The notes under the pieces are model-generated. The model did no database searches, was not told the origin of the DNA, and worked only from the letters and a program-made list of their open reading frames with translations. From NCBI GenBank assembly GCA_026770705.1, contig JANJGN010000017.1:96100001-96164000 (forward strand): a DNA stretch of 64,000 nt, given 5' to 3'. The stretch is from Isurus oxyrinchus (lineage: Eukaryota). This document shows positions 805 through 63,483 of the stretch, in pieces. The first letter of the stretch is position 1. Every line of letters starts with the position of its first letter. The position numbers and the translations under genes are program-made.

Positions 805-931
805 GTATAGCAGACCAACTGGCTACCCAGATGATTGTATCGCAGTTTTTGACCATGAGAATTGTCAATATCGGGTCCACAAGAAGAATGATACTTCTGT
901 TGAATGTCCAGTGTATGCCAGTGTTGGGTAA
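805..931 (+). CDS. MSMB: Beta-microseminoprotein-like gene, copy 0: terminal coding exon only (upstream exons lie outside the window)
   Basis: Acceptor ttttccag|G, then YSRPTGYPDDCIAVFDHENCQYRVHKKNDTSVECPVYASVG*. This matches the PxGY..C..(8)..C.Y.V..K.D....C pattern of the MSMB last exon. AATAAA follows at 936-941. Confidence 0.85.
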
Positions 932-1099
932 TCAGAATAAAAGCATTTAATTTCCAATATAAAACCATCAGCTTCATTCTCGATGCAAGTACCATGGGAG
1001 AATGGGAGCCTTGCTTCCTCCATGAAACATCAATATTACAATAAAGATATTTCACAGTGGTTTCATTCTCAAACTTGATCTATTATTTCAACAAGACAT

Positions 1100-1108
1100 A
1101 TGAGTGCG

Positions 1109-1151
<43 letters not shown>
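1100..1151 (+). repeat. (TG)n microsatellite downstream of the gene
   Basis: Directly visible. Confidence 0.95.
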
Positions 1152-1152
<1 letters not shown>

Positions 1153-2149: not shown

Positions 2150-2950
2150 GAAATCGTATCAGTAGATGACCAACGCCATGAAGAAACCAGTCAGGAACTG
2201 ATCAAGCACCTCTCAACTAATCAGGGCCTGGTCACGCACCACATGGACCAATCAGGGACAAGTGACATGACTGATCATGCACATGCTTCGTGGTTTGCAA
2301 AGAGTTAAACAGCACCAGATTTGAACTGCTTTGACCTTCCCAGTGACCTTCTCCCAAACTGGCATGGTGAGGTTGGTGGACCTGCTGCTACCATCACTGG
2401 GATAGAGGAAATCCCTCTGCTCCTGGGCTGCCTGGAGGAGTTTCTGAAGGGAGCTGTCGCTGAACTTTGCAGCCAATTGTTTGGATCTCCTCAGGGTCCT
2501 CACTCACCACAACAAGTCCTGGGCCGCACACAGTGACGGTGTGTATGGGTCTCATTTCAAAATGGCACAGGACATTCAACCCCATGAGGTAAAAGGTAAC
2601 CCCAGCCCACCCCGACAACACATTCAATGAGCTGATGAATGAGCTGAAGAGCAGACGATCTGGTGAGAACCGACATCCAGTGGGAATCACACCCACTATC
2701 CAGCCACCACAGCACTTAGCCTCCAGAACAGAAAATTCCACCACAGACTTGAGCACACAGTGGAGGCCCATTGTTCCCAGTGCAGTTACACATAGCCAAT
2801 CCATGTTCCCCAATTTATACCAGTGATGCTGAGGTCAATTAATTCCGACCCAACATCAGCCAGGCTCATATTTGCCCAGATTGGACGTTATTGTCTGGGT
2901 GTGTTAGCCAGTGCTAAGGGTGTACTGCATTATCACACAAAATGTTGAAC
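2150..2950 (-). mobile_element. Decayed PIF/Harbinger-like fragment with a Myb/SANT-like ORF remnant (also near 23880-24700, 37470-38290 and 51065-51885)
   Basis: ORF 2252..2503(-) contains AAKFSDSSLQKLLQAAQEQRDFLYPSDG...WEKVTGKV, resembling the FS..L..L...LF....W..V Myb/SANT-like motif of Harbinger accessory proteins. Boundaries are approximate. Confidence 0.45.
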
Positions 2951-3004
2951 TGAGATCCTGCTGACATTCACTGCTTCATGTAAGAGATCCCATGGCTCAA
3001 GGGG

Positions 3005-4123
3005 TGGGGTGAGAGTGATTGCCCTTGACATCAAGGCTGCATTTGACCAAGTGTGGCATCAGGGAGCCCCAGCAAAACTGGACTCAATGGGAGTCAGGGG
3101 GCAAACTCTCTGCTGGTTGGAGTCATACCTAGCACAAAGGAAGATGGTTGTGGTTGTTGAAGGTCAATCATCTCAGTCCCAGGACATCACTGCAGGAGTT
3201 GCTCAGGGTAGTGTCCTAGGCCCAACCATCTTCAGCTGCTTCATCAATGACCTTCCTTCCATCACAAGGTCAGAAGTGAGGATGTTCGCTGATGATTGCA
3301 CAATGTTCAGCACCATTCGCAACTCCTCAGATAGTGAAGCAGTCCATGTCCAAATGCAGCAAGACCTGGACAATATTCAGGCTTGGGCTGACAAGTGGCA
3401 GGGAACGTTCGCACCACACAAGTGTCAGGCAATGACTATCTCCAACAAGAGAGAACACAACCATCACCCCTTGACATTTAAGGCATTGCCATCACTGAAT
3501 TTCCCACTATCAACATCCTGAGGGTTACAATTTCCAGAAACGGAACTGGAATAGCCATATAAATACTGTGGCTACAAGAGCAGGTCAGAGGCTAAGAGTC
3601 CTGTGATGGGTAATTCACCTCCTGGCTCCCCAAATTCTGCCCACCATCTACAAGGCACAAGTCAGGAGTGTGATGGAATACACCCCACATGCCTGGATGA
3701 GTGCAGCTCCCAAAACAGTCCAGAACCTCAATACCATCTGGGACAAAGCAGCCTGCTTGATTGGCACCACATCTACCAACGAACCACAATAGCAGCAGTG
3801 TGTACCATTTAGAAGGTGCACTGCAGGAACCCACCAAGCCTCCTTAAACAGCATCTTCCAAACCCATGACTACGACCATCTAGGAGGACAAGGGCAACAG
3901 ATAGATGGGAACACCACCAACAGAAGGATCCCCTCCAATTCAATCACCATCCTGACTTCGAAATATCTCGCAGTTCCTTCACTGTCACTGGATCAAAATC
4001 CTGGAACTCCCTCCCTAACAGCGCTGTGGGTGTCCCAACACCACATGGACTACAGCGGTTCAAGAAGGCAGCTCACCACAACCATCTCAAGGGCAATTAG
4101 AGATGTGCAATAACAATGCTGGC
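3005..4123 (+). mobile_element. 5'-truncated CR1-clade LINE (RT C-terminus and 3' UTR); tail resumes at 5298-5338 after the LTR element
   Basis: ORF 3009..3521 has the non-LTR RT motifs LDIKAAFDQV, GVAQGSVLGPTIFSCFINDL and FADD, followed by a frameshifted C-terminus. The 3' UTR ends ..gatgcccatg..gaataaaaaaaa. Confidence 0.9.
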
Positions 4124-5292: not shown

Positions 5293-5339
5293 CTGGCACA
5301 GCCAGTGATGCCCATGTTCATTGAAAGAATAAAAAAAAC

Positions 5340-5611
5340 TATTTTGAAGAAGAGAGGAGGTGTCCTTTGTATTGTGGTCTTTACTCACTGACTGACATTT
5401 CCACAGTCATTGCCCTCAGAATCAGGGTGAATATCCTCGCCGGTGAGTGGACTTGAGTTCCAGCCAATGGTTGCTGCTGACGTGGCCATTGCTGGGCACC
5501 ATGAGGATTTGAACTTTGTAACCTTGAAGCTGATGAATAATAATCTACACCAGCCAAACAGGACAGAAATTCCTCTCTTGGTGACTGTAAAGGTGTCTCG
5601 TTGGGCTGAGT
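5340..5611 (+). promoter_or_regulatory. Putative proximal promoter and 5' UTR of copy A (homologues precede every copy)
   Basis: Non-TE segment conserved in all units directly upstream of the exon 1 ATG. It has CCAAT near 5464 and an AT-rich TATA-like element (gaataataat here, gaataaaaat in copies B-E) about 75 bp before the ATG. Confidence 0.45.
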
Positions 5612-6284
5612 ATGGTATGTTTGAGTGTGACTCAGATTGTGTTTGTACTTGTGAGGGATTATTTCATCTGGGAACATGTTGCTGGTGAACCTATTTGCAT
5701 TGATACTTGTATTTGTTACAGGATGTTCTCCTGCATTGATAAGAATGTATATTTTTTGGGACTAAGCAGTCACTTTACAGCAGGGGTGAGGAACCCTCGA
5801 CCCGGAGGCTGGATCCAGCCCCTTGTACTTTTTCATCCGGCCCGCTGAGTTTTTCAAAGCGCGGTCTCACCAACCTACCCGCTACTCCCTCGAGTACCTG
5901 ATGCGCTCTGAGCCAGCTGCCGCCATCTCCTGCTGCCTCAGCCTTGGCCACAGTCTGCAGAAGCCCAGGCTCTGTGGAGAGTGTCAGGGGCAAGATCTAG
6001 GAGCAGGAGGGCAGGGACAGGAAGCTGCCGGCTGCTGATCGGGTGGTGAAGTGTGAGTTAGCCGGGACAGGGGAGAAAGGGAGCAGCTCACCCAGCACCA
6101 TCGGCGGCTCACCCCCCCCCCCCTTATCCTTCCAACTCCATTGGTGTCGCAGGACAGGGTTTCAGCTCCTGCAGAGTGAGGGAGAGGCCCAGGCTCCTGG
6201 CCCAGGTGTAGCCTCTGACTGGGAGTTGGCCAGATGGTTGGACTGTTGAGTCACTGCACTGGTTTGGGGGTGACACAGAATAGG

Positions 6285-6320
<36 letters not shown>

Positions 6321-9300
6321 CAGAGTGGGAAAGGAGAGGGAGAGAGAGAGAGATAGTGGGAAATGAGAGGGAAAGAGAGAGAGGCAGAGTGGGAAAGGAG
6401 AGAGAAAGACAGTGGGAAAGGAGAGGGTGAGGGAGATGAGAGATGGGAAAGGAGTGAGAGAGCAAGGGAGAGAGATTGGGAAAAGAGAGGGTGAGGGAGA
6501 GAGAGAGAGTGGGAAAGGACAGAGAGAGAGAGAGCGAGAGAGAGAGTGGGAAAGGAAAGCAAGCAAAACGTTGAGCTGAATCTCAGCAGTACTGTGATTG
6601 AGACAGAGAAACTGCTTCTCATGAAGGGAAAGCAAACACAGGCATCGCATTCAAGCAGTGGGTGGGTTGAACGTTTCTATATTCTCTCTTAAAAAGATAA
6701 ATGAAGTTGCTTATTATGTGTGTGGGCCCCCGACTGATTTGGTCTATGTGTGAATAGCCCTGAATAAGAAAAGGTTTTCCCATCCTTGCTTTAGAGGTTG
6801 GTCATTAGACACTTTCAGCAGCAAGAGCAGGGAGGTGTGAGGCATCGCTGGAAGACACAATAATTGAATTCGTGTCTCCGAGGTGCCCACAGGCCTGTTC
6901 TGGAGTAAAGAATCTGTAAAGGAAGCAGTCTGGCGTGGGAAGCACATTCCACCGGCCAGCCGAAATGGGAGAACAGGATACCGAAATGGCCATGGAGCTG
7001 AACCAGTTAACAGTGAGCAATAAGTAACCAGCTCGTTTAAAGCATTCAGCACCAGCGAACAAATCCATGTGGAGAAGGGCATCTAACACGTGGGAACACC
7101 ATCTTCAGGTCACACACCATCCTGACTTGGAGTTTGTTGTTCCTTCACTGTCACTTGGTCCAAATCCTGGAACTCGCTCCCTCACAACACACATTGGTTT
7201 AGATGCAACACAGGGACTGCAGCAGTTCAAGGAGGTGGCTCAACATCACCTTCTCAAGGCAATAAGGAATGGGCAATAAATGCTGGCCCAGCCAGGATGA
7301 TTTTTTCAATCAGAAATGTCAGACTGGCTCAGGAGGCCTTCTGGTTCTGGACTCATGAATTGAGACAAATGTTTAGGTAGAACAAAGGAAACTTTGTTCT
7401 GAACCAGACCACACTGTCACTGAATGGGAGCACTGGGTACAGACAGCGGTTGTCGCTGAACAAGGTAATGACCCTTCCCCAGAATTGACATCCATCAGCT
7501 TGAACAGTAAGCTCCAAATGTTTCAGAAAATGGGAATGAGAAACTTGATTGTGAACTCAGTTTCATATCCTGTGAAAAGTGTGTGAGGAGGAAATGTAAA
7601 TCTGAGATGTCCTGAATGTGAATCATGTTTCCCTGGGATTTGAGCTCCTACTTTGTTTGGACACATTTCTGGATGTTGTATCATGTCTTTCAGTCTCCAC
7701 ACCCGACTCTTGGTGTGAGTTATGTTTCTCTCTCAGACACATCCACTTGAAAAAGCAATAGACCTCGGTTGTACTATTTGTGGACAGCCTTTGTTATCCA
7801 GTTTTCAGCAGGAACGCATTAAATATTCAAGAATAAGAATAGAAAATCCTGTTATTTCCTGGGTTATCTTCTGGGTTCCAGAAATCTATTCCTGGAGTCT
7901 CCATACCAACACTGGAGGATTGGGAACCCCTCCCAGTAATGCTTAAGTCTCATACAGATGTCAAGTCCCATATACAATTCTGTTAAGGTTTTGTATCACC
8001 TTGTGCATCCCCAAGGTAAACAAGTGATGTGTGAGGATGGATATGTTTTTGTAGCTTCAGGGTCAAGAAATGAAGCCCCCTGTTCCGCTCCCTTTTTAAG
8101 AGAATGTCTGAACTACCTGTTTATCAGCTAATCCCTCAATCCACTCCACAAACAATCCCAGTTGTTTTTGGACGACTCCCGGTACTTTATTGACCATCAC
8201 TCTGATTGATAACTTCTATCTGATTGGGAATTAGTCTAATCTAAGTGACATGACCAAGTTCCTCAACATGTTCCCTCTTTATTCCCTCCCCCACCCGGAC
8301 CCCACACCAACCCCATAGAAACTCATCTTGTGCCTTACTCTGCTGCTCCTGGCTGTTGAACATGGAGAATCTTACTGTTTCGCCAAACCTCGCAAACGTA
8401 AGTACCAAACCTTTGCCAACTTTCCATTTAGATCTGGGGTGAAAATGAGCTAAACATAAGAACTGAGGCTGAATGTAACCTCCACCCAATTGATGAATGT
8501 TGTCAATGGCTATGGAACCCAAATCCAGCATGAGAGAGGGATAGTCCCAGCCTCACATAACTGCTCCAGGCCACATGAATCCTCAGGGATTGCCTTACAC
8601 AGTCCCCCTCCCCAAGGGTCCAAGAGGGAATAGGCCAGTATCCTGCCTTGTCAAATTCACCAGCTCCTGCTCCATGGGCCAAATCAGACGCCAGCAAGTA
8701 TCCAGCCCATTCCTGTCCACCAACCCACCCCCATCCAGAAGGAGTTGGACAGGGGTCACTGGATGGATACAACCCCCTTTGCCACTGGCAGTCATCGTGT
8801 TCCGAGGTTCATGGCTGTGAAACTCTCAGGCCCAGGTCTTCTTGGATATGGAACTTGGCTCTTCCCAAGTCCACAGAGCTCACCGATGATTCAGCCGACC
8901 AGGCAGTTCTTCAAACTCCCAAATGTCAATACAAGCCCATGGTACCTCTGCAGTCTTTGATGAGGCATTGACAGACCAATCTCAATGTCTTTCTCTCTCT
9001 CTCTCACTCTCGCTTCTGGAATTCCAGACTCACCAAACTGCAGGGATGATGTTGATGGCACCTGGCATGAACCTGGTGAAAGCTGGATAAACTCTGACTG
9101 CATGAGATGTTCGTGCTTGAGTGAATCGATAAACTGCTGTTCAACGTAAGTGATTCTCTGCCGTTGTAGCTCAAATAGCCCTTTTGTGTTATTCTGCACT
9201 GATCTTTCTTATTGAAGCACAAAGTGGATTTGGGATGAGCAGCCAGACAAGGAGTCGTTTCCGTCATCTTGTTATAATGATAAAAAGAAGCAATCACTCA

Positions 9301-11431
9301 CAAAGGATTGGGTAACCACGTTGTGGCTTTATTTTGTGAGGCTAGACATCTGGGTACATTTATACTAAGGTAAAAAGTTTGAAAATATCAGAGCTGTGCT
9401 GTTCTCTAATCATAGGCAAAAGTGAAACTAAGACCAGATCACATGACATTCTTCCCTTCCAGTGATGTCATGTTGCTACCTCTTAAAGAGATATTACCAC
9501 AAATTCAAAGGTAGTTTACAGATTGGGAAACACTGCAGGATTGGTGGTTTCTGGTTAGCGGAATGAACAGAACACATGACTTCCTCCTTCTCATTTCCAG
9601 ACATGTTAGCACCTGAGGTATCACCCAAGCCCCGTGCACAGCACCAAATTTTGGGATACAAGCAGTCGATAAAATGGTGGCAGGGCTCAGACTGCGATGG
9701 GGAGGGAGAGTGAGGAGTGGGAGAACATTCCAATGTGGAGATGCCCCACTGTAAAAGAGCGTGTAGATGAGGAGAGGGCGGAGCTGACGAGTGAGAGGAG
9801 ATGAAGAGAGAGCAGAGAACAAGAGAGAGCGGAGACTAAGAGAGAGCGGCGTCGAAGACAGACTGGAGACGGAGAGTGGAGACAGGGAGAGAGTAGAGAT
9901 GGAGATAGAGTTTGGATGAGAGAGGGTGCGGAGGGAGAAAGTGGAGATGAAGATAGAGTGCTGTTGAAGAGAGTGCAGATAGAGTACTGTAGAGAGAGTG
10001 GAGATGCAGAAAGGACGGAGAAGAAGAGGCGAGGGGAGGGTGCAGATAAAGGGAGAGTGTAGATTTAAAGAGGGTGGGATGAAGAGATTGGGGATGAGGA
10101 GATAATTTAGATGAGAGAATCTGCAAATGAAGAGAGAGATATGTTGAAGAGAGGTTGGAGAGGAAGAGAGGTAGGAGATGAAGAGAGAATGGAGAAGAAG
10201 AGAGAATTGAGATGCAGAGAGAGTGGACATGAAGAGAGAGCAGAAATAAAGAGAGGGTGGAGATGAAGAGAGATTGGAGATAAAGAGAGGGTGACAAAGG
10301 TAATAATGTAAATGAGAGAGTGTGGAAATGAAGACAGAAAGGAGATGAAGAGAGAATGCAGTTGAAGAGAGTGCAGATTGAGAGCTTTAGAGAGAGTGGA
10401 AATGAAGAAAGGGTGGAGATGAAGAGAGGGTGGAGATGAAGAGAGAGCAAAAATTAAGAGAGGGTGAAGATAAAGAGAGGTTGCAGATAAAGAGAAGGCG
10501 GACATACAGAGAGTGCGGCTCAGGTAATAATGTAGATGAGAGAGTGTGGAAATGAAGAGAGAAAGGAGATGAAGAGAGAATGCAGTTGAAGAGAGTGCAG
10601 ATAGGGAGCTTTAGGGAGGGTGGAGATGCAGAGAGGGTGGAGATGAAGAGGCGAGGAGAGAGTGAAGATGAAGAGAGAGAGGAAATGAAGTAAGGGTGGA
10701 GATGAAGAGAGGGAGGAGATAAAGGGAGGGAGGAGATTAAGAAAGGGTGGAGCTGAAGAGAGAGTGGAGATGAAGAGAGGCTGGAGATGAAGAGAGAGTG
10801 GAGATGAAGAGAGGCTGGAGATGAAGAGAGAGTGGAGATGAAGAGAAGGTGGAGATGAAGAGAGGGTGGGGTTAAAGGGAGGGTGGAGATGAAGAGAGAG
10901 TGCAGATGAAGAGAAGTTGGAGATGAAGAGAGGGTGGAGATAAAGTGAGGATGGAGAAGAGAGGGTGGAATTGAAGGGAGAGTGTAGATGAAGAGAAGGT
11001 GGAGATGAAGAGACGGTGGAGATGAAGAGAGGGTGGAAATGAAGAGAGGGTGGAGTTGCAGAGATACTTTTTGATCTGCTTCTCTTGTCAGCCCACATGG
11101 GAGGTCAGTTTTCTGCTGCTGCCTCTCTCCAATTGGCTACTCAGGAACTGCTGGGAAGATATGGGGGAAACAAGGAATTTATCCAAAGGCTGTCCACCAC
11201 CCTTTGGGAGAAAATTATGAAATTGTTCAGTGAAAACAATACAGTGCAAATTTAACCCTTACTCTTGGGATCATTCTGATGCTTTACTCACCTGTATTTT
11301 CCAGGTATTTCAGACCAACTGGCTACCCAGATGATTGTATCGCAGTTTTTGACCGTGCGAATTGTCAATATCGGGTCCACAAGAAGAACGATGCTTCTGT
11401 TGAATGTCAATCGTCTGGCAGTGTTGGGTAA
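5612..11431 (+). CDS. MSMB: Beta-microseminoprotein (PSP94)-like gene, copy A, intact, 4 exons, 108 aa
   Basis: Exons: 5612-5614 (ATG|gtatgt), 8319-8397 (atag|..|gtaagt), 9028-9145 (ttccag|..|gtaagt) and 11305-11431 (ttccag|..TAA, then AATAAA). Phases 0/1/2 join in frame to give MKLILCLTLLLLAVEHGES-YCFAKPRKHSPNCRDDVDGTWHEPGESWINSDCMRCSCLSESINCCSTYFRPTGYPDDCIAVFDRANCQYRVHKKNDASVECQSSGSVG. It has a signal peptide, 10 mature Cys including CxxCxC and CC, and an ATG-only first coding exon as in mammalian MSMB. The exon 1 call is the least certain part. Confidence 0.9.
5781..6788. mobile_element. Non-autonomous hAT (Charlie-like) DNA transposon in intron 1
   Basis: Ends CAGGGGTGAGGAACC and GGTTTTCCCATCCTTG form imperfect terminal inverted repeats. 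The 8-bp TSD is CTTTACAG/CTTTAGAG. It contains an internal GA-rich tract. Confidence 0.7.
7090..7300 (+). mobile_element. CR1-type 3'-tail fragment in intron 1 (progressively deleted in units B-E)
   Basis: Similar to 3905-4120 (ccatcctgactt..ttccttcactgtc..aaatcctggaactc..gggcaataaatgctggcc). Confidence 0.65.
9760..11060 (+). repeat. Purine-rich 17-bp minisatellite in intron 3 of copy A
   Basis: Degenerate GAGAGGGTGGAGATGAA units. They generate the S/L/H/P-rich spurious minus-strand ORFs. Confidence 0.9.
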
Positions 11432-11435
11432 TCAG

Positions 11436-11441
11436 AATAAA
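11436..11441 (+). terminator. Polyadenylation signal of copy A (same position in all copies)
   Basis: AATAAA begins 5 nt after the stop codon (TAAtcagAATAAA) in all six copies. Confidence 0.6.
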
Positions 11442-11597: not shown

Positions 11598-11599
<2 letters not shown>

Positions 11600-12775: not shown

Positions 12776-15700
12776 AGCAGTAATTGAAGGTATAGCCTTT
12801 CCTGCTGTCCATCAGGGGTCACATGCTTTCTTGGCGACTCTGACCAATGAGCCCTAAGCGTGGGTAATCCAGGGCGTGTGGTTCTCTAGTTGAGGATCTG
12901 GTTCAAGCATGTAGCTTCTGAAAAGCTCTCTGTAATAAAGTCACAAAAAAGGAAAATGCTGGTAAAACTCAGGAGGTCTGACAGCACCTCTGGAGAGAAA
13001 GTTAGAGTTAACGTTTCGAGTCCGTATGAATCAGTAAGAAGGGTCATATGGACTCAGAACGTTAACTCTGTTTCAATCTCCACAGATGCTGTTAGACCTG
13101 CTGAGTTTCTTCAGCATTTGCTGTATTTGTTTCAGATTTCCAGCATCCACAGTATTTTGCTTTTATCTGTAATAAAGTTATCTGTTTGAAGTAGAAACCT
13201 GTCCAGTACGTCAAGTCATTACATTTGGTGATGAGGGTGAGATAGCTCCGACGCTGCACCTCGCCTTGTGAATGTGAATACATCAGATCTTAAGAAAAAA
13301 AGAAAAGTATACTCACCAGTCATGCCACTCTTCAGCAGAATCGATCCTTATGACGCGACGATGGGAGACTGGAGCCAGTATGTAGAGCATCTTGGCTTTT
13401 ATATCATGGCGAACAAAATTACCATGGAGGAGAAGCAGAAAGCAACCCTTCTGAGTGTATGTGGTGGCAAGACACACAATCTCATCCACGGTCTGATGGC
13501 CCCGAATGTGCCCAATTCTAAGCCCTTTAACGTGTTTGTGGACCTTGTGGACATTCTCAGCCGAAACCATCGGTAATAATGCAGAGATTTAACTCCAGAG
13601 TAAGGGCCCAGAGAAAGTCCATCACAACCTACATAGTGAAGTTGAAGCAGTTGACTGAGCACTGTGACTACGGAGACAAACTCAATGATATGTTGCGGGA
13701 CCGATTAGTTTGTGGAGTTCACAACAACCCCATTCAGTGCCCATTAATCGCAGAGGTCAACGTCAATATGAAGAGCGCTATGGAAATAGCACTAGCTGTG
13801 GAAAGTGCTGCGAGAGACTCACAGGCTTTACAGCACACACAACATGGCGCTGTTCTTCATGTGGGGCAGGAAACTCCGAAAACCAGAGACACAGCAGCAA
13901 AGCGAGAGGCAATCTCTGCTGCTAGAAAAATGAAAAGACCTAGTGGAAGAATTTCACCAATCCCTCCAAGGTTAATCTGTTATACATGTGGCGGTAACCA
14001 CATACCGGACACCTGCACATTCAAGGCGGCAGAGTGCTGTTACTGTCATAAGAAAGGACGCGTAATAAAGAAATGCAGTGTGAAATCGAGACATCCCATA
14101 AGGCAGCAAACCAAAATGATTGAAGTGAATAATAGAACAGAACCTGAGGTTGCCATTACTGACATCAAATCCCTGTAAAATTTCACAGCTGTATAAACTG
14201 AACGTATTACCATCACAATCCAAGTGAATGGGAAGCCACGAATAATGGAGGGAGATAGAGGAGCCTCACCACAGTGGTTGGACAGCACACATTAAAATAC
14301 CTAAATGAAGGTAACTGGCCACTGAATCCAGAGAGAACCACGGCTCAATTGAAGACATACAGTGGAGAATCCATATAGGTAAAGGGCATCACCACAGTAC
14401 CTGTGCCCTATTCAGCAAACAGACAGACCAGCTTCCAGTGATCATTGTGAGAGGTGAAGGACCTAGTCTTCTGGGCCGAGACTGGCTGCAAAATATTACG
14501 CTCAACTGCTCTGAAATATTTCACTTGAGAACAGGAGGAGTTCCTCAACTGTTAAGCAAACACGGCAGTGTATTTCATGATAAATTGGGAGATATAAACA
14601 CTTGCAAGCAAAAATGTATGTAGATTCTCAGGCAACAGCCCATTCTTTAAGGCCAGACCTGTGCCTTATTCCCTAAAGGGGAAGGTGGATGCAGAACTGT
14701 GCTGGTTAGAAAAACTAGGCATTACCCAATCAGTCCAATTTTCAGAATGAGCAGCACCCCTATCGCCAGTGGCGAAACATGACCAAACTATACGCATTTG
14801 CGGGGACTATAGATTGACCGTGAACAACGCAGGCAAACTAGATAAATAACATATCCCGAGGATAGGGGACATGTACACACAGCTAGCTGGAGACAAATTT
14901 TACACCAAACTGGACATGAGCCATGAATTCTAACAGCTAGAGCTGGATAGCACATCTAGATGTGTAATCATCAACACACTCAAGATAAAAACAAAGAAAA
15001 CTGCGGATGCTGGAAATCCAAAACAAAAACAGAATTACCTGGAAAAACTCAGCCGGTCTGGCAGCATCGGCGGAGAATAAAAGAGTTGACGTTTCGAGTC
15101 CTCATGACCCTTCGACAGAACTTGATTTCGAGTCCAAGAAAGAGTTGAAATATAAGCTGGTTTAAGGTGTGTGTGTGGGGGGGCGGAGAGAGAGAGAGAG
15201 ACAGAGGTGCTTGTGTAGACAAACAAGCAGTGATAGAAGCAGATCATCAAAAGATGTCAGTGACAATGGTACAAAAGAACACATAGGTGTTAAAGTTAAC
15301 ACACTCAAGGGCTTATATCAATATATGCACCTACACTTTGGAGTATCGTCTCCATGTGCAATCTTCCAAAGGACAATAGAGAGTCTTTTGCAAGGACTTC
15401 CCCAAGTAATAGCACACCTAGGTGATGTTCTGATCACACGGTCAACTGAAGCAAATATTTGGCCAAACTGGAAGAGATGTTAAGAACATTCTTGGAAGCT
15501 GGTATACAATTAAAGAAAGAGAAATGTACATTCCAAGCACCAGGAGATACTTACCTGGGTCACTGGGAGGATGCCATGGGGTTGTATCCAGAAGAAGAGA
15601 AAGTTGGTGCAATCAAATAGGCATCCTCTCCGCCCAGTGTAACTGAACTCAAGTCTTTTCTGGGCAGGATCAATTATTACAGCCGTTTCTTATCAAACTT

Positions 15701-21200: not shown

Positions 21201-22690
21201 CAAGTATCCAGCCCATTTCTGACCACCAACCCATCCCCATCCAGAAGGATGGAGACAACCCCCTTTCTCAATGGCAGTCAATGTGTTCCGAGGTTCATGG
21301 CTGTGAAACTCTCAGGCCCAGGTCCTCTTGGATATGGAACTTGGCTCTTCCCAGGTCCAAAGATCTCAGTGATGATGCAGCTGACCAGGCAATTCTTCAA
21401 ACTTCCAAATATAATTGCAAGCCCATGGTACCTCTTCAGTCTTTGATGAGACATTGACAGACCAATCTCAGTCTCTTTCTCTTTCTCTCACTCTCTCTTT
21501 GATTCCCACCTGGAATTCCAGACTCACCGAACTGCAGGGATGAAGTTGATGGCACCTGGCATGAACCTGGCAAAAGCTGGATAAACTCTGACTGCATGAG
21601 ATGTTCGTGCTCGGTTGAATCGATGCGCTGCTGTACAACGTAAGTGATTCTCTGCCGTTGCAGCTCAAATAGCCCTTTTGTGTCATTCTGCACTGATCTT
21701 TCTTATTGAAGCACAAAGTGGATTTGGGATGAGCAGCCAGACATGGAAGTCATTTCTGTCATCTTGTTTTAATGATAAAAAGAAGCAATCACTCACAACG
21801 GATTGGATAACCACACTGTGGATTTATTTCGTGAGGCTAGACATCTGGGTACATTTGTACTAAGGTAAAAATCTTGACGATATCAGAGCTGTGCTCTTCT
21901 CTAATCACAGGCAAAAGTGAAACTAAGACCGGATCATATGACACACATCCCTTCCAGTGATGTCATGTTGCTACATCTTAAAGAGATATTCCAACAAATT
22001 CAAAGGTAGTTTACAGATTGGGAAACATTGCAGGATTGGTGGTCTCAGGTCAGCGGAATGAACGGAACACATGACTTCCTTCCTCTCTTTTCCAGACTTG
22101 TTATCACCTTAAGTATCTCCCAAGCCCCGTGCAGAGAGGGTGGAGATGAAGAGAGGGTGGAGTTGAAGAGAGAGTGGAGTTGAAGAGAGAGTGGAGTTGA
22201 AGAGAGAGTGGAGATGAAGCGAGGGTGGAGATAAAGGGAGGGTAGAAATGAAGAGAGAGTGAAGATGAAGAGAAGGTGGAGATGAAGAGAGAATGGAGAT
22301 GAAGAGAGGGTGGAGTTGCAGAGATACTTCTTGATCTGTTTCTCTTGGCAGGCCATATGGGAGGTCAGTTTTCTGCTGCTGCCTCTCTCCAATTGGATAC
22401 TCAGAATCTGCTGGCGACATTGGGGGAAACAAAAAATTTATCCAAAGGCTGTCCATCACCCTTTGGGAGAAAATGGTGAAATTGTTCAGTGAAAGCACTA
22501 CAGTACAAATTTAACCCTTACCCTTGGGATCATTCTAATGCTTTATTCATCTGTGATTTGCAGGTATGGCAGACCAACTGGCTACCCAGATGATTGTATC
22601 GCAGTTTTTGACCGTGAGAATTGTCAATATCGGGTCCACAAGAAGAACGATGCTTCTGTTGAATGTCAATTTACTGGCAGGGTTGGGTAA
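18211..22690 (+). CDS. MSMB: Beta-microseminoprotein (PSP94)-like gene, copy B, intact, 4 exons, 108 aa
   Basis: Exons 18211-18213, 20733-20811, 21522-21639 and 22564-22690, all with GT-AG introns. Protein: MKLILCLTLLLLAVEHGES-YCHNKFHPNSPNCRDEVDGTWHEPGKSWINSDCMRCSCSVESMRCCTTYGRPTGYPDDCIAVFDRENCQYRVHKKNDASVECQFTGRVG. All 10 Cys are retained and AATAAA follows the stop. Confidence 0.9.
18380..19342. mobile_element. hAT-like non-autonomous element (co-duplicated copy)
   Basis: Same termini; TSD CTTTACAG/CTTTGGAG. Confidence 0.65.
22133..22320 (+). repeat. Shortened 17-bp minisatellite in intron 3 of copy B
   Basis: Same unit; the 5' part has been deleted together with flanking intron sequence. 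Confidence 0.85.
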
Positions 22691-22856
22691 TCAGAATAAA
22701 AGCATTTAATTTCCAATATAAAACCATCAGATTCATTCTCGATGCAAGTACCATGGGAGAATGGGAGCCTTGCTTCCTACATGAAACATCAATATTACAA
22801 TAAAGATATTTCACAGTGGTTTCATTCTCAAACCTTATCTACTATTTCAACAAGTC

Positions 22857-48500: not shown

Positions 48501-50475
48501 AGAGAGTAGAAAAAAGGAGAGGGCCGAAATGAGGAGAGAGCAGAGACAAAGAGAGAGCGGAGACTAAGAGAGAGCAGAGACTAAGACAGAGCAGCGATGA
48601 AGACAGACTGGAGACGGAGAGAGAGTGGAGATGGAGAGAGAGTGTGGACGAGACAGGGTGGGGAGGGAGAAAGTGGAGATGAAGAGTGAGTGCAGTTGAA
48701 GAGAGGAGATAGAGTGCTGTAGAGAGGGTGAAGCTGCAAAGAGGATAGAGATGAAGAGAGTGGGGATGAGGAGCTAATTTAGATGAGAGAATGTTTAAAT
48801 GAAGAGAGAGATATCTTGAATAGAGGGTGTAGATGAAGACAGGTAGGAGATGAAGAGCGAATGGAGAGGAAGAGAGAATGGAGAAGAAGATAGAGTGGAC
48901 ATGAAGAGAGAGCGGAAATAAAGAGAGGGCGGAGATGAAGAGAGGTTGGAGATAAAGAGAAGGCAGAGATAAAGAGAGTGTGGCTAAGGTAATAATGTAG
49001 ATGAGAGAGTATGGAAATGAAGAGAGAAAGGAGATGAAGAGAGAATGCAATTTAAGTGAGTGCAGATAGAGAGCTTTAGGGAGGGTGGAGATGCAGAGAG
49101 GGTGGAGATGAAGAGGTGAGGAAAGAGTAGAGATGAAGAGAGAGTGGAAATGAAGAGAGGGTGGAGATAAAGAGAGGGTGGAGATGAAGAGAGATTGGAG
49201 ATAAAGAGAGGTTGGAGATGAGGAGAGATTGGATATGAAGAGAAGGTATAAATGAAGAGATTGGGGATGAGGTAATAATGTCGATGAGAGAGCATGGAAA
49301 TGAAGGGAGAAAGGAGGTGAAGTGAGAATGCAGTTGAAGAGAAGGTGGAGATGAAGAGAGGGTGGAGATGAAGAGAGGGTGGAGTTGAAGAGAGAGTGGA
49401 GTTGAAGAGAGAGTGGAGATGAAGCGAGGGTGGAGATAAAGGGAGGGTAGAAATGAAGAGAGAGTGAAGATGAAGAGAAGGTGGAGATGAAGAGAGAATG
49501 GAGATGAAGAGAGGGTGGAGTTGCAGAGATACTTCTTGATCTGTTTCTCTTGTCAGGCCACATGGGAGGTCAGTTTTCTGCTGCTGCCTCTCTCCAATTG
49601 GATACTCAGAATCTGCTGGCGACATTGGGGGAAACAAAAAATTTATCCAAAGGCTGTCCATCACCCTTTGGGAGAAACTGGTGAAATTGTTCAGTGAAAG
49701 CACTACAGTACAAATTTAACCCTTACCCTTGGGATCATTCTAATGCTTTATTCATCTGTGATTTGCAGGTATGGCAGACCAACTGCTACCCAGATGATTG
49801 TATCGCAGTTTTTGACCGTGAGAATTGTCAATATTGGATCCAAAAGAAGAACGATGCTTCTGTTGAATATCAATTTACTGGCAGAGTTGGGTAATCAGAA
49901 TAAAAGCATTTAATTTCCAATATAAAACCATCAGCTTCATTCTCGATGCAAGTACCATGGGAGAATGGGAGCCTTGCTTCCTACATGAAACATCAATATT
50001 ACAATAAAGATATTTCACAGTGGTTTCATTCTCAAACCTTATCTATTATTTCAACAAGTCATAAGTGTGTGTGCATGTGTGTGTGTGTGTGTGATGGTGG
50101 GGAGGGAGAAAGTGTCCAGAGTAGGCAGTGTGAGTGTAAAGAGAACATACAAGAGTGTGCAAGAGAGAGAGTGTGCAAGAGAGAGAGTGTGAGAGAGAGT
50201 ATGCCAGCGAGAGTGCGCCCACAGGAGTATGTGTGGGAGAGCGTGTGTATACGAGGAAGTACATGTGGATATGAAACACCATGGCTGTTGAAAGCTACAA
50301 TGCTCAATGGGTTACATATAACGAATAATTAGTCAGATTAAGAGGGGCTTTCCTGAACCAATCACAAAGGACGTGAAGAGGGAAAGAAATCCAAGCCAGA
50401 AAGGTCTTTAAAGAAGTTGCTGACACCCATTCACATTGTATCTGGGCACATTGTCTCTTCATGTTCCTTTCTTCA

Positions 50476-50791: not shown

Positions 50792-51898
50792 GTTCCTTTC
50801 TTCACAAAACGAACCCATCAACATTGACTGGCGGGTGAGAGACAAGTGTAGAAACGTTGCAGATTTCTCATTGTTTACACTGAGTAGATTAGTTACCTGC
50901 AGTAATCAATAACCAAAAGTATATTAACCTAAAATAATATTATGCTGAATTGTCCCTGTTGTCTCAGTAGAAAGACATAAATCTAAACAAAATGACAAGA
51001 AAAGCTCTAATGAGGGGGACGGACCATCCAGGAATTAACATCTTAGAGGGCCAGTCAGGAGACAACAGGAAATGATATCAATAGATGTCCAGTGCCATAA
51101 AGAAACCTGTCAGGAACTGATCATGCACTTCTCAACTAATCAGGTCCTGGTCACGCTCCACAGCAACCAAACGGGGATCAGTGACATGATTGACCATGCA
51201 CATGCTTCGTGGTTGAACTGCTTTGACCTCCCCAGTGACCTCCTCCCAAACTGGCGTTGTGAGGTTGGTGGACCTGTTGCTACCATCTCTGGGATAGAGG
51301 AACTCCCTCTGCTCCTTGGCTGCCTGGAGGAGTGTCTGAAGGGAGCTGTCGCTGAACTTTGCAGCAAATGGTCTGGATCTCCTCAGGGTCCTCTCTCACT
51401 ACAGCAGGTCCTGGGCCGCACACAGTGACGGCGTGTATGGGTCTCATTTCAAAATGACGCAGGACATTCAACCCCATGAGGTAAAAGGTAACCCCAGCCC
51501 GCCCAGACAACACATTCAATGAGCTGATGGAAGAGCTGAAGAGGGGACAATCTGGTGTGAGAACCGACGTCTAGTGGGAATCACACCCACTATCCAGCCA
51601 CCACAGCACTTAGCCTCCAGAACAGAAAATTCCACCACAGACTTGAGCACACAGTGGAGGCCCATTGTTCCCAGTGCAGTTACACATGGCCAATCCATGT
51701 TCCCCAATTTATACCAGTGATGCTGAGCTCAGTTAACTCCGACCCAACATCAGCCAGGCTCATATTTGCCCAGATTGGACATTATTGTCTGGGTGTGTTA
51801 GCCAGTGCTAAGGGTGTACTGCATTATCATGCAAAATGTTGAACTGAAGTTCTGCTGACATTCACTGCTTCATGTAAGAGATCCAATGGCTCAAGGGG

Positions 51899-53013
51899 TG
51901 GGGTGAGAGTGACTGCCCTTGACATCAAGGCTGCATTTGACCAAGTGTGGCATCAGGGAGCCCCAGCAAAACTGGACTCAATGGGAATCAGGGGGCAAAC
52001 TCTCTGCTGGTTGGAGTCATACCTCGCACAAAGGAAAATGGTTGTGCTTGTTGGAGGTCAATCATCTCAGTCCCAGGACATCACTGCAGGAGTTGCTCAG
52101 GGTAGTGTCCTAGGCCCAACCATCTTCAGCTGCTTCATCAATCACCTTCCTTCCATCACAAGATCAGAAGTAGGGATGTTCGTTGATGATTGCACAATGT
52201 TCAGCACCATTCGCAATTCCTCAGATAGTGAAGCAGTCCATGTCCAAATGCAAAAAGACCTGGACAATATCCAGGCTTGGACTGACAAGTGGCAGGGAAC
52301 GTTCGCACCACACAAGTGTCAGGCAATGACTATCTCCAACAAGAGAGAATCCAACCATCACCACTTGACATTTAAGGCATTGCAATCACTGAATCCCTTA
52401 CTATCAACATCCTGAGGGTTACCATTTCCAGAAACGGAACTGGACTAGCCATATAAATACTGTGGCTACAAGAGCAGGTCAGAGGCTGAGAGTCCTGCGA
52501 TGGGTAACTCACCTCCTGACTCCCCAAAGTCTGCCAACCATCTACAAGACACAAGTCAGGAGTGAGATGGAATACGCCCCACTTGCCTGGATGAGGGCAG
52601 CTCCCAAAACAGTCCAGAACCTCAATATCATCTGGGACAAAGCAGCCTGCTTGATTGGCACCACATCCACCAACGACGCACATTAGCAGCAGTGTGTACC
52701 ATCTACAAGGTGCATTGCAGGAACTCACCAAGGTTCCTTAAACAGCATCTTCCAAACCCATGACCACGTCCATCTAGGAGGACAAGGGCAACAGATAGAT
52801 GGGAACACCACCAACTGAAGGATCCCCTCCAATTCAATCACCATCCTGACTTCGAAAGATATCTCCGTTCCTTCACTGTCACTGGGTCAAAAACCTGGAA
52901 CTCCCTCCCTAACAGCACTGTGGGTGTCCCTACACCACATGGACTGCAGCGGTTCAAGAAGGCAGCTCCCCCTTCTCAAGGGGCAATTAGGGATGGGCAA
53001 TAACAATGCTGGC
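51899..53013 (+). mobile_element. 5'-truncated CR1-clade LINE
   Basis: ORF 51903..52415 has RT motifs and is followed by the 3' UTR. Confidence 0.9.
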
Positions 53014-58111: not shown

Positions 58112-61100
58112 ATGATCTCCTGCATTGATAAGAATGTATATTTTTTGGGACTAAGCAGTCACTTTACAGCAGGGGTGAGGAACCCTCGACCCGGAGGCTG
58201 GATTCAGCCCCTTGTACTTTTTCATCCGGCCCGCTGAGTTTTTCAAAGCGCAGCCTCACCAACCTCCCCGCTACCCCCTCGAGTACCTGATGCGCTCTGA
58301 GCCAGGCACCGCCATCTCCTGCTGCCTCAGCCTCGGCCACAGTCTGCAGAAGCCCAGGCTGTGTGGACAGAGTCAGGGCCAAGATCCAGGAGCAGGAGGG
58401 CAGGGACAGGAAGCTGACGGCTGCTGATGGGGTGGTGAAGTGTGAGTTAGCCGTGACAGGGGAAAAAGGGAGCAGCTCACCCAGCTCCATTGGCGGCTCA
58501 CCCCCTTATCCTCCTAAATCCATTGGTGTCGCAGGACAGGGGCTCAGCACCTGCAGAGTGAGGGAGAGGCCCAGGCTCCTGGCCCAGGTGTAGCCTCTGA
58601 CTGGGAGTTGGCTAGAGGGTTGGACTGTTGAGTCACTGCCCTGGTTTGGGTGTGAGTCAGAGTGGGATAGAGAAGGAGAGAGAGAGATAGAGAGGCAGAG
58701 TGGGAAAGGAGACGGAGAGAGAGAGAGGGAGGCAGAGTGGGAAAGGAGAGGGAGAGAGAGAGAGGGAGGCAGAGTGGGAAAGGAGAGCGAGAGAGAGAGA
58801 GAGAGAGAGAGGAATAGTAGGAAAGGAGAGAGAGATTGAGTGGGAAAAGAATACGAGAGAGAGTGAAAGAGAGAATGGGGAAGGAAAAGGTGAGAGAGAG
58901 AGAGAGAGTGGGAAAGGAGAGAGAGAGAGATAGAGATTGGGAAAGGAAAGCAAGCAAAACGTTGAGCTGAATCTCAGCAGTACTGTGATTTAGACAGAGA
59001 AACTGTGCTACTAATGAAGGAAAAGCAAACACAGGCATCGTATTAAAGCAGATGGGTTGAACGTTTCTGTATTCTCTCTTAAAATGATAAATGAAGTTGC
59101 TTATTATGTGTGTGTGGCCCATGGCTGATTTGGTCTATGTGTGAATAGCCCTGGATAAGAAAGGATTTTTCCATCCCTGCTTTGGAGGTTGGTCATTAGA
59201 CACTTTCAGCAGCAAGAGCAGGGAGGTGTGAGGCATCGCTGGAAGACACAATATTTGAATTTGTGTCTCCGAGGTGCCCACAGGCCTGTTCTGGAGTAAA
59301 GAATCTGTAAAGGAAGCAGTCTGGAGTGGGAAGCACATTCCACTGCCTAGCAGAAATGGGAGAACAGGATACAGAAATGGCTCATGAGCTGAACCAGCTA
59401 ACAGTGACCTCACAACACACATTGGATTACCTACCAAGGAATGGGCAATAAATGCTGGCCCAGCCAGCGATGCACACACCACGATGATGATTTTTTCAAA
59501 CAGAAATGTCAGACTGGCACAGGAGGGCTTCTGGTTCTGGACTCATGAATTGAGACAAACAGGTTAGGTAGAACAAAGGGAGTTTTGTTCTGTACTGGAC
59601 CACACTGTCACTGAAATAGCAGCACTGGGTGCAGACAGCGGTTGTCGCTGTACAAGGTAACGACCCTTCTCCAGAATTGACATTCATCAGCTTGTACAGT
59701 AAGCTCCAAATCTTTCAGAAAATGGGAATGAGAAACTTGATTGTGAACTCAATTTCACATCCTATGAAAAGTGTGTGAGGAGGAAATGTGCATCTGAGAT
59801 GTCCTGAATGTGGATCATGTTTCCCAAGGATTCCAGCTCCTAATTTGGTTGGACACATTTCTGGGTGTTGAATCATGTCTTTCAGTCTCCACACCCCACT
59901 CTTGGTGTGAGTTATGTTTATCTCTCAGCCACATCCACTTGAAAAAGCAATAGACCTCGGTTGTACTATTTGTGGACAGCCTTTGTTATCGAGTTTTCAG
60001 CAGGAACACATTAGATATTCACGAATAAGGATTGAAAATCCCGTTATTTCCTGGATTATCTTCTGGGTTCCATAAATCCATTCCTGGAGTCTCCATCGCA
60101 ACACTGAAGGATTGGGAATCCTTCTCATTAATGCTTAAGTCCCATACAAATGCCAAGTCCCACATACAATTCTGTAAATGTTTTGAGCTGAGGTATCACC
60201 TTGTGCATCCCCAAGGTGAACAAGTGAATGGATATGAGTTTGTAGCTTCAGGGTCAATAAATCGAGCCCCCTGTTCAGCTCACTTTATAACAGACCATCT
60301 GAATTCACCTGTTTGTCAGCTTATCCCTCAATCCACTCCACAAAACAATCCCAGTTGTCTTTGGATGTCTTCCAGTGCTTTATTGACCATCACTCTGAGT
60401 GAAAACTTCTATCTGATTGGGAATTAGTCTAATCTAAGTGACATGACAAAGTTCCTCAACATGTTCCCTCTTTATTCCCTCCCCCACCCGCACTCCACAC
60501 CAACCCAACAGAAACTCATCTTGTGCCTTACTCTGCTGCTCCTGGCTGTTGAACATGGAGAATCTTACTGCCACAGCAAATTTCACCCAAGTAAGTACCA
60601 AACCTTTGCCAACTTTCCATTTAGATCTGGGGTGAAAATGAGCTAAACATAAGAACTGAGGCTGAATGTAACCTCCACCCAATTGATGAATGTTGTCAAT
60701 GGCTATGGAACCCAACTCCTGCATGATAAAGTGATAGTCCCAGCCTCACATAACTGCTCCAGGCCACATGAAACCTTCCCTCAGGGATTCCCTTACACAG
60801 TCCCCCTCCGCTAAGGGTCCATGAAGGAATAGGCCTTGTCAAATTAGCCAGCTCCTGCTCCATGGGTCAAAGCTTGGCTGTTGTGTGCAAATGAAGTCCC
60901 GGACAACAAACTGGCTGAGGCCTCATTGTGGTAAGCACGGAAACAATCCTCCAGCACACTGCCTAAATTCAGACCCCAGCAAGTATCCAGCCCATTCCAG
61001 ACCACCAACCCACCCCCATCCAGAAGGAGTTGGGCAGGGGTCACTGGATGGAGACAACCCCCTTTCTCAATGGCAGTCAATGTGTTCCGAGGTTCATGGC

Positions 61101-63483
61101 TGTGAAACTCTCAGGCCCAGGTCCTCTTGGATATGGAACTTGGCTCTTCCCAGGTCCAAAGATCTCAGTGATGATGCAGCTGACCAGGCAATTCTTCAAA
61201 CTTCCAAATATAATTGCAGCCCATGGTACCTCTTCAGTCTTTGATGAGACATTGACAGACCAATCTCAGTCTCTTTCTCTTTCTCTCACTCTCTCTTTGA
61301 TTCCCACCTGGAATTCCAGACTCACCGAACTGCAGGGATGAAGTTGATGGCACCTGGCATGAACCTGGCAAAAGCTGGATAAACTCTGACTGCCTGGCAA
61401 AAGCTGGATAAACTCTGACTGCATGAGATGTTCGTGCTCGGTTGAATTGATGAGCTGCTGTACAACGTAAGTGATTCTCTGACGTTGCAGCTCAAATAGC
61501 CCTTTTGTGTCATTCTGCACTGATCTTTCTTATTGAAGCACAAAGTGGATTTGGGATGAGCAGCCAGACAAGGAGTCGTTTCCGTCATCTTGTTATAATG
61601 ATAAAAAGAAGCAATCACTCAAAACATTGGATAACCACATTGTGGCTTTATTTCGTGAGGCTAGACACCTGGGTACGTTTGTACTAAGGTAAAAATCTTG
61701 AAGATATCAGAGCTGTGCTCTTCTCTAATCACAGGCAAAAGTGAAACTAAGACCGGATCATATGACACACGTCCCTTCCAGTGATGTCATGTTGCTACAT
61801 CTTAAAGAGATATTACAACAAATTCAAAGGTGTTTACAGATTGGGAAACATTGCAGGATTGGTGGTCTCAGGTCAGCGGAATGAACGGAACACATGACTT
61901 CCTTCCTCTCTTTTCCAGACTTGTTACCACCTGAAGTATCTCCCAAGCCCTGTGCATAGTACCAAATTTTGGGATACAGGCATCGATAAAATGGTGGCAC
62001 GGCTCAGAGGGTGATGGGAAGGGAGAGTGAGAAGTGGGAGAACATTCCAATGTGGAGATGCCCCACTGTAAAAGAGCATGTAGATGAGGAGAGAGTAGAA
62101 AAAAGGAGAGGGCCGAAATGAGGAGAGAGCAGAGACAAAGAGAGAGCGGAGACTAAGAGAGAGCAGAGACTAAGACAGAGCAGCGATGAAGACAGACTGG
62201 AGACGGAGAGAGAGTGGAGATGGAGAGAGAGTGTGGACGAGACAGGGTGGGGAGGGAGAAAGTGGAGATGAAGAGTGAGTGCAGTTGAAGAGAGGAGATA
62301 GAGTGCTGTAGAGAGGGTGAAGCTGCAAAGAGGATAGAGATGAAGAGAGTGGGGATGAGGAGCTAATTTAGATGAGAGAATGTTTAAATGAAGAGAGAGA
62401 TATCTTGAATAGAGGGTGTAGATGAAGACAGGTAGGAGATGAAGAGCGAATGGAGAGGAAGAGAGAATGGAGAAGAAGATAGAGTGGACATGAAGAGAGA
62501 GCGGAAATAAAGAGAGGGCGGAGATGAAGAGAGGTTGGAGATAAAGAGAAGGCAGAGATAAAGAGAGTGTGGCTAAGGTAATAATGTAGATGAGAGAGTA
62601 TGGAAATGAAGAGAGAAAGGAGATGAAGAGAGAATGCAATTTAAGTGAGTGCAGATAGAGAGCTTTAGGGAGGGTGGAGATGCAGAGAGGGTGGAGATGA
62701 AGAGGTGAGGAAAGAGTAGAGATGAAGAGAGAGTGGAAATGAAGAGAGGGTGGAGATAAAGAGAGGGTGGAGATGAAGAGAGATTGGAGATAAAGAGAGG
62801 TTGGAGATGAGGAGAGATTGGATATGAAGAGAAGGTATAAATGAAGAGATTGGGGATGAGGTAATAATGTCGATGAGAGAGCATGGAAATGAAGGGAGAA
62901 AGGAGGTGAAGTGAGAATGCAGTTGAAGAGAAGGTGGAGATGAAGAGAGGGTGGAGATGAAGAGAGGGTGGAGTTGAAGAGAGAGTGGAGTTGAAGAGAG
63001 AGTGGAGATGAAGCGAGGGTGGAGATAAAGGGAGGGTAGAAATGAAGAGAGAGTGAAGATGAAGAGAAGGTGGAGATGAAGAGAGAATGGAGATGAAGAG
63101 AGGGTGGAGTTGCAGAGATACTTCTTGATCTGTTTCTCTTGTCAGGCCACATGGGAGGTCAGTTTTCTGCTGCTGCCTCTCTCCAATTGGATACTCAGAA
63201 TCTGCTGGCGACATTGGGGGAAACAAAAAATTTATCCAAAGGCTGTCCATCACCCTTTGGGAGAAACTGGTGAAATTGTTCAGTGAAAGCACTACAGTAC
63301 AAATTTAACCCTTACCCTTGGGATCATTCTAATGCTTTATTCATCTGTGATTTGCAGGTATGGCAGACCAACTGCTACCCAGATGATTGTATCGCAGTTT
63401 TTGACCGTGAGAATTGTCAATATTGGATCCAAAAGAAGAACGATGCTTCTGTTGAATATCAATTTACTGGCAGAGTTGGGTAA
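58112..63483 (+). pseudogene. MSMB: MSMB-like pseudogene, copy E
   Basis: ATG at 58112 with no donor; exons 60512-60590, 61320-61466 and 63358-63483. It has the same four lesions as copies C and D. Confidence 0.88.
58170..59179. mobile_element. hAT-like non-autonomous element (co-duplicated copy)
   Basis: Same termini and TSD as the other copies; this copy has no gap. Confidence 0.65.

Follow-up and report, generated by a model that had tools for sequence, protein, structure and literature searches.

Isurus oxyrinchus carries a tandem array of PSP94-family (beta-microseminoprotein, MSMB) genes. The stretch analysed, called the window here, is 64,000 nucleotides (nt) of contig JANJGN010000017.1 (C17) in assembly GCA_026770705.1, positions 96,100,001-96,164,000, in a genome of 4.98 Gb. 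The array is composed of 14 units, and all lie on the forward strand, as do the features given below. It occupies about 196 kb at 96.1-96.3 Mb of C17, of which 464 kb around the window was read. From about 15.8 kb upstream of the window it runs to window-relative position 180.2 kb, which confirms that it extends beyond both window ends, as the first-pass annotation had proposed. Transcripts of units A, B, and F are spliced and polyadenylated, one pseudogene (C) was amplified six-fold after dying, and the mature regions are probably under positive selection.

The order of the units is Z1, Z0, A, B, C1-C6, D, E, F, and G. Two are plainly intact (A and B), one is rescued (F), one is uncertain (G), and the remaining ten (Z1, Z0, C1-C6, D, and E) are broken or damaged. 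The window holds the six units first counted in it, namely exon 4 of Z0, the intact A and B, and the broken C1-C3. A genome search with exon 4 matched 13 of 14 candidates, all inside 160 kb on C17.

The family is PSP94, in agreement with the initial assignment. Pfam PF05825 (PSP94) is the best match for all five window exons tested, with 15.8-21.9 bits; the exons were scanned rather than the spliced protein, and each single exon scores just below the 22-bit cut-off for a whole protein. Matches are collinear, with exon 3 at profile positions 17-51 and exon 4 at 55-91, and both exons of G match as well. Full-length relatives pass the cut-off in 8 of 8 cases (30-51 bits). A profile of 13 relatives retrieves six PDB sequences, every one of them MSMB or the snake small serum protein (SSP) SSP-2; the best PDB matches to exon 3 of copy A are likewise beta-microseminoproteins and SSP-2. 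An exhaustive protein search with exon 4 gives 33 matches. The five best are all from elasmobranchs, led by basking shark XP_078421558.1 with 78% identity over the exon, in support of a shark source, probably a lamniform one; 14 of the 16 named proteins among the 20 relatives examined are called a microseminoprotein or a small serum protein. A word-indexed search with the same exon gave no candidate. The array is not a chance resemblance, because the family matches are collinear exon by exon and the transcripts are spliced.

Gene structure points the same way. Four exons, the first of which ends in the 3 nt of the start codon, are typical of MSMB and USM, not of MSMP (PMC3268785). The shark copies have this 3-nt first coding exon and four coding exons. 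No branch of the protein tree is well supported, and nothing here relies on that tree. Z0, which is misaligned in two upstream segments, was disregarded in the tree of copies.

Copy A has exons of 3, 79, 118, and 127 coding nt, all with GT/AG boundaries, which join into 327 nt encoding 108 residues and a stop; copy B has the same layout. The exon structure first described for the window is thereby confirmed in both. The start codon and GT donor of copy A lie at 5612-5614. Exon 2 (8319-8397) encodes the predicted signal peptide, the first mature Cys, and a hypervariable N-terminal strand. Exon 3 (9028-9145) encodes six Cys of the N-terminal domain, a predicted Greek key, and matches PF05825 positions 17-51 with an E value of 2.7e-4. 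Exon 4 (11305-11441) encodes three Cys, matches positions 55-89, and is coding to 11431, followed by a poly(A) signal. In copy B, the start codon and donor are at 18211-18213, exon 2 at 20733-20811, exon 3, which also matches PF05825, at 21522-21639, and exon 4 with the 3' untranslated region at 22564-22818 (coding to 22690; poly(A) signals near 22695 and 22799).

The product had been described as a 10-Cys protein. This holds for the mature part; the precursor contains 11 Cys, one of them in the signal peptide. Mature Cys residues in A, B, D, and F occupy positions 2, 13, 33, 36, 38, 45, 46, 59, 68, and 82, an order identical to that of chicken MSMB3 (2, 12, 30, 33, 35, 42, 43, 57, 66, and 80; PMC8167871). 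From the chicken order, bonds 2-46, 13-38, 33-68, 36-45, and 59-82 are predicted (PMC8167871). The predicted mature proteins are acidic, with isoelectric points of 5.2-6.4 and net charges of -1.6 to -4.6. The hydrophobic 19-residue N-terminus of the precursors aligns with the N-termini of relatives. In exon 1 of copy A, at 5468-5615, an upstream open frame is out of frame with the start codon and matches the N-terminus of basking-shark XP_078421558.1. That model skips exon 2 and consequently has no signal peptide. The leaderless form is probably an annotation artefact and possibly a real isoform.

Twenty public runs were listed for the copy B region; none is recorded as RNA, and nine contained next to no words of the stretch, which is no guide to tissue. 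Four were examined, with X1 and X5 from one sample of one organism (organism A) and X4 from another (organism B), in two studies. Spliced transcripts from copies A and B, predicted initially, are present as GT..AG joints in X1, X4, and X5. A 505-nt contig in X4 runs from the end of exon 1 through exons 2, 3, and 4 into a poly(A) tail after 22818. Joints 20811/21522 and 21639/22564 of copy B occur in X1 and X5, and the first is found in X4 too. For copy A, the end of exon 1 is joined to exon 2 in X1 and X4 contigs, and an A-type joint of exons 3 and 4 is found in X5. None of the GT..AG joints is seen in the fourth run, X6, which is DNA-like with even intron coverage. X1 contains several intron pieces of 190-340 nt, with 0-1 differences from copy B.

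Judged from variant letters, A-, B-, and F-type transcripts are all present. Read depth is a poor measure of expression in these runs; with that limit, summed depth in X1 is 1-4 x 10^5 in exon bins versus 0-230 in purely intronic bins, the B type accounts for about 7% of the reads' depth at 20780, a base found only in B, and the F type for about 65% at 22725 and 22728, which are F-only bases. F-type transcripts look most represented in X1 despite the loss of the usual exon-3 acceptor. Copy F has an open frame with ten Cys, an altered acceptor at the usual exon-3 site, and an in-frame alternative AG 30 nt upstream (window-relative 144680-144709; C17:96,244,680-96,244,709). Use of this AG would add ten residues after the variable N-terminal strand. 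In F-type contigs spliced between exons 3 and 4, sequence upstream of the lost acceptor is included, as would be expected of rescue by the cryptic site; intron retention is the alternative, as the letters shown stop short of the join. Among the variants listed for the four runs, whose contigs drop rare variants, no C-type lesion appears.

Z1 is a divergent copy with a stop in exon 3, and its exons 1-2, like those of G, were looked for and not found. It is an old paralogue that is dead here, with 68% identity over exon 3 to an open zebra-shark gene. Z0 is represented in the window by exon 4 (805-931), hence its first description as one partial copy. The other three exons are found upstream, 5.8-10.3 kb outside the window. 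Z0 is also broken, a pseudogene in the present assembly, because exon 3 is short of 1 nt and the first mature Cys is gone. D retains an open frame with ten Cys, yet its intron-1 donor is deleted. E is open with two Cys lost and one gained. The divergent G has open exons 3 and 4 with nine Cys. In noncoding sequence, A, B, D, E, and F are 6-9% apart.

Pseudogene C is a chimera, D-like at its 5' end and B-like from intron 1 onward. At informative sites, C agrees with D between 1.5 kb upstream of the start and about 0.5 kb into intron 1, and with B beyond about 0.9 kb, so that the switch lies within or beside a GA-rich repeat of intron 1. The deleted donor of D is common to C. In all six units, 29 nt of exon 3 are also duplicated, exon 4 lacks 1 nt, and the last Cys is lost. 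C1 lies at 30925-36301, with its tandem duplication at 34182-34240. C2 (44519-49894) differs from it by 5 substitutions in 13,463 compared bases, and C3 (58112-63483) differs from C2 by one, the lesions of the three being alike. C4-C6 are situated past the window, ahead of D, E, F, and G. The three dead copies noted earlier are indeed broken, but they are not three deaths; they are one pseudogene with common lesions, of which three more copies stand outside the window.

Measured from start codon to start codon, C1-C5 differ pairwise by 1-8 substitutions in about 13.5 kb, and C4 and C5, like C2 and C3, are one base apart. The C units are the outcome of a single loss followed by very recent amplification, or partly of assembly. 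The latter explanation, in which near-identical units are in part artefacts and the true copy number is lower, draws on this closeness and is unlikely. C4 and C5 share variants at two sites, and C3 and C6 share one substitution and a 4-nt length difference, unlike random error. Real duplication is favoured because variants are common to non-adjacent units. An artefact would in any case alter the count only, not the finding. With recent duplicates, pseudogenes, and old retained paralogues all present, the birth-and-death turnover proposed at first stands, and unequal crossing-over appears to be its mechanism.

Repeats accompany the units. A 17-bp purine-rich minisatellite of variable length is found in intron 3 of every unit (9765-11064 in copy A; further sites at 27-565, 22133-22324, 34900-35936, 48493-49529, and 62082-63118). 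The GA-rich simple repeat of intron 1 lies at 6289-6556, and again at 18890-19099, about 31545-31765, and 58654-58936. Spacers between units contain a reverse-transcriptase fragment (2949-3518; PF00078, E 1.6e-22), with further fragments in the open-reading-frame listing at 24657-25226, 38250-38819, and 51843-52412. Decayed retroelement fragments at 13531-14175, with equivalents in other spacers, have been copied along with the units, as have the reverse-transcriptase fragments. The decayed ones have no Pfam match and are presumably gag-like.

Evidence for selection comes from the mature regions. Omega is 2.46 for the mature region of A, B, D, and F, with a log likelihood (lnL) of -646.96 when omega is free and -650.41 when it is 1 (2 x delta lnL 6.9, 1 df, chi-square p ~0.009). 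Pairwise ratios among A, B, D, E, and F are at least 1.0 in 10 of 10 comparisons. Pooled counts are 49 nonsynonymous to 8 synonymous changes, giving p = 0.047 and 0.018 at a transition bias of 2 and 4. The first ten mature codons have 16 nonsynonymous changes to 1 synonymous, and the signal peptide has 3 to 4. A, B, and F have the same signal peptide, and about a fifth to a quarter of their mature residues differ. The most variable site lies two residues past the first Cys, where the five open copies all differ, and aligns with human F24, a residue named as important for CRISP2 binding (PMC8857485). Some of the figures pull the other way. Only 2 of the 10 pairwise tests are significant, both involving the damaged copy E, and the pooled count gives p = 0.115 at a bias of 1, that is, without transition bias. 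The likelihood estimate comes from four mosaic sequences, which makes the evidence suggestive rather than firm.

Neutral drift would explain the array differently, with one gene sufficient, the rest recombination debris, and the amino-acid excess a product of relaxed constraint and gene conversion. Ten of 14 units are broken or damaged, the most amplified one is dead, and the copies are mosaic, all as this account would have it. An omega above 1 is nevertheless unexpected from relaxation alone. All ten Cys are kept in A, B, D, and F, the signal peptide has stayed constant in A, B, and F while mature residues diverge, and three copies are transcribed and spliced. Drift as the whole explanation is thus improbable. 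The diversified repertoire first envisaged is borne out as to fast protein change and is small, with two intact copies, one rescued, and one uncertain out of 14.

The preferred reading, held with moderate confidence, is that the genes encode secreted five-disulfide binders of extracellular CAP/CRISP-type proteins. These binders would act by way of an N-terminal strand that is diversifying, while recombination alters the number of copies in the cluster regardless of function. By analogy with relatives, the intact genes would give rise to secreted, two-domain proteins of 89 residues with five disulfides. These may bind extracellular proteins tightly, as decoys or inhibitors, with members of the CAP/CRISP family the most likely targets. 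Binding would occur through the N-terminal beta-strand, and changes in the strand would give paralogues differing partner preferences. CRISP binding by PSP94 and SSP-2 has been linked to the N-terminal strand and to F24 (PMC8857485, PMC7150914). Copy number would be largely a neutral by-product of recombination, because the most amplified unit is dead. This reading is weakened by the residue at the position matching human F24, which is Phe in no copy, and by secretion being predicted from the hydrophobic N-terminus and from relatives.

A place among the abundant components of reproductive-tract secretion (seminal fluid, oviduct, egg-case, or uterine fluid) is another possibility, though a doubtful one. 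The proteins would then diverge under sexual or mother-offspring selection, with marsupial USM, bird MSMB3, and primate MSMB as parallels. The egg coat contains USM, and expressed sequence tags of zebrafish usmh are largely from the reproductive tract, with USMH expression outside that tract noted as well (PMC3268785). In the hen, MSMB3 is confined to reproductive tissue (PMC8167871), and the fast-evolving marmoset copies have one dominant transcript (PMC2746217). Exon depth thousands-fold above intron depth in one sample would fit a gland product. Such a role can be compatible with CRISP binding.

Direct antimicrobial defence of mucosa or skin through action on membranes has its own precedents. 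Human PSP94 acts against fungi when the pH is low and disrupts liposomes rich in ergosterol (PMC8857485), chicken MSMB3 is described as antibacterial (PMC8167871), and fast evolution suits host defence. However, the mature proteins are acidic, unlike typical cationic killers, and change is clustered at the protein-binding strand instead of being spread over a charged face, which leaves this role distinctly unlikely. More speculative still, and of low probability, is that sharks, independently of snakes and from the same ancestral locus, evolved a panel of very abundant secreted inhibitors. Parasites or venomous prey would be the source of the foreign secreted proteins, of CAP/CRISP type or other, against which the binding strand runs an arms race. 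The dominant transcript may in that case be the copy rescued by a cryptic site, with ten extra residues beside the strand.

The array is flanked by RASSF2 upstream (named best matches) and by an SLC23-family gene downstream, with GDA1/CD39 and SRCR-domain genes farther upstream. The SLC23, GDA1/CD39, and SRCR genes are taken to be SLC23A2, ENTPD4, and LOXL2, respectively. Synteny with NCOA4, as at the MSMB locus, had been put forward as a check and does not hold. WASHC2-like (PF15255) and NCOA4 (PF12489) matches are on contig C27, at 8.0 and 9.3 Mb, and the array is not at the classic MSMB locus linked to these genes, WASHC2 and NCOA4 being the markers searched. C27 also has a RASSF2 paralogue. 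ANTXR-family exons are found on both contigs, at 97.07 Mb of C17 (0.8 Mb from the array) and at 11.78 Mb of C27. NCAPH, presumably a neighbour of ARID5A, is on C17, 6 Mb from the array. An MSMB-like protein and RASSF2 are on contigs of identical length in 7 of 7 species that could be compared, and an MSMB-like protein matches the RASSF4 contig in 0 of 5; co-location here means a shared chromosome, not adjacency.

Two paralogous blocks have been described, one with MSMB beside FAM21C and ANUBL1 and one with USM/USMH beside ARID5A, with ANTXR1/ANTXRL pairs (PMC3268785). The array appears to lie in the block paralogous to that of MSMB, and its locus is most likely of the USM/USMH type. Some findings weigh against this assignment. 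ARID5A was not located; there are 12 ARID matches, 11 of which were inspected, and none of these looked like ARID5 by presumed subfamily. USM/USMH is defined by adjoining ARID5A in PMC3268785, whereas the direct neighbours of the shark array are RASSF2 and the SLC23 gene. ELP3, a neighbour of marsupial USM, is on contig C6. Four CNNM-family matches, all on C17, lie two near each end (9.9-12.0 Mb and 110.6 Mb). Because CNNM genes are at both ends, C17 is not purely one paralogous block, which hints that it joins two paralogous segments.

Other neighbourhood searches gave side results. An ARID-domain exon scores identically at C28:21,370,227 and on a small unplaced contig (C3467:39,405), which may be a retained second haplotype. 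KANSL3 was sought with PF20408, and the match is instead to what is presumably a TEX30-like gene. From fish to human, the prion gene has RASSF2 and SLC23A2 as neighbours (PMC3203146). A prion-family search of low sensitivity gave no match at C17:96,030,000-96,050,000, the sole genome match being weak, with stops, and on contig C21.

Searches for a second family locus returned little. The 150 kb 3' of WASHC2 on C27 contain no family exon in a profile scan (best E 0.23); satellite makes up most of this segment, which stops short of NPY4R. Complex satellite fills about 90 kb just past the WASHC2-like gene (C27:7,900,000-7,987,000), on the side scanned for a canonical MSMB. A PF05825 search of the genome gave 0 of 57 candidates and is uninformative on absence, because the array itself was missed. 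Outside the array, five other query proteins yielded nothing but weak matches (7 of 26 with E 0.17-3.1, 0 of 11, 2 of 19 with E 0.7-0.9, and 1 of 6 with E 1.8), and the two G exons as genome queries gave none there. MSMP, which is expected to exist, was missed as well, and the sensitivity of the genome search is therefore limited.

The closest sequences are cartilaginous-fish genes annotated as 'beta-microseminoprotein-like' in NCBI and UniRef, which are database labels, not studies. Besides basking shark, identity over exon 4 is 66% for sevengill XP_067857635.1, 66% for cloudy catshark XP_072341724.1, and 67% for zebra shark XP_048378697.1; labelled elephant shark relatives are XP_042200490.1 and AFM90459.1. 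The lineage-specific expansion first suggested is in part an overstatement: several paralogues at the array locus also occur in other cartilaginous fishes, and NCBI annotation already gives them the family name. Features of the present assembly are the pseudogene in six copies, its chimeric make-up, and the cryptic acceptor. One basking-shark gene is annotated with two 'isoforms', whose exons 4 differ as those of Z0 and D do here. This suggests that the array is partly common to basking shark and that automated annotation fused tandem copies there.

Members of the USM/USMH branch (lizard USMH1-7, zebrafish usmh1-3, and marsupial USM) resemble the shark genes in exon number (four, with 3 coding nt in the first), in their ten Cys and complete exon 4, in tandem copies biased by lineage, and apparently in lying in the block paralogous to that of MSMB (PMC3268785). 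Exons 2 and 3 are shorter in the shark than in lizard USMH, at 79 and 118 nt versus 94 and 127-130 (PMC3268785). Snake SSP-1 to SSP-6 (PDB 6IMF chain B) are alike in tandem four-exon genes, ten Cys, transposon-laden introns, pseudogenes, and ratios of nonsynonymous to synonymous change (KA/KS) above 1 between recent copies (PMC7150969, PMC6609765). Intron divergence is near 5-6% in these snake genes (PMC7150969, PMC6609765) compared with the shark's 6-9%. SSPs have known venom targets, and the snake and shark expansions are independent. By similarity, the snake SSPs are placed with the USM/USMH branch. MSMB proper (human PSP94, opossum MSMB1-14, chicken MSMB1-3, and marmoset MSMB1-4) is alike in fold family, Cys order, and exon phases, and likewise in repeated tandem expansion and rapid change. 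It differs in linkage to WASHC2 (FAM21C), ZFAND4, NPY4R, or NCOA4; in the shark, WASHC2 and NCOA4 are on C27, where searches of limited sensitivity detected no family member.

Tandem arrays have been published from opossum (14 genes), tammar, lizard (7), zebrafish, Xenopus, and chicken (PMC3268785), snakes (PMC7150969, PMC6609765), and marmoset (PMC2746217). No description of a shark microseminoprotein cluster was found in the open-access literature. The family is unmentioned in the available portions of PMC3203146 and bioRxiv 10.1101/287870, and in the main text of PMC3466250 on elephant shark cDNAs. The shark cluster is apparently new to the literature and an ordinary expansion for the PSP94 family, useful to the specialist and not surprising.

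For the family, the array extends the pattern of repeated PSP94 expansion and fast evolution to cartilaginous fishes. It also brings together, in one small locus, a rise in copy number that serves no function, with a dead chimera present six times, and probable positive selection on working copies. The location suggests that the locus kept and expanded by sharks is the paralogue on the USM/USMH side, not the mammalian MSMB locus. As such, it helps to date the split of the MSMB and USM/USMH branches and provides an outgroup for snake SSPs and marsupial USM.

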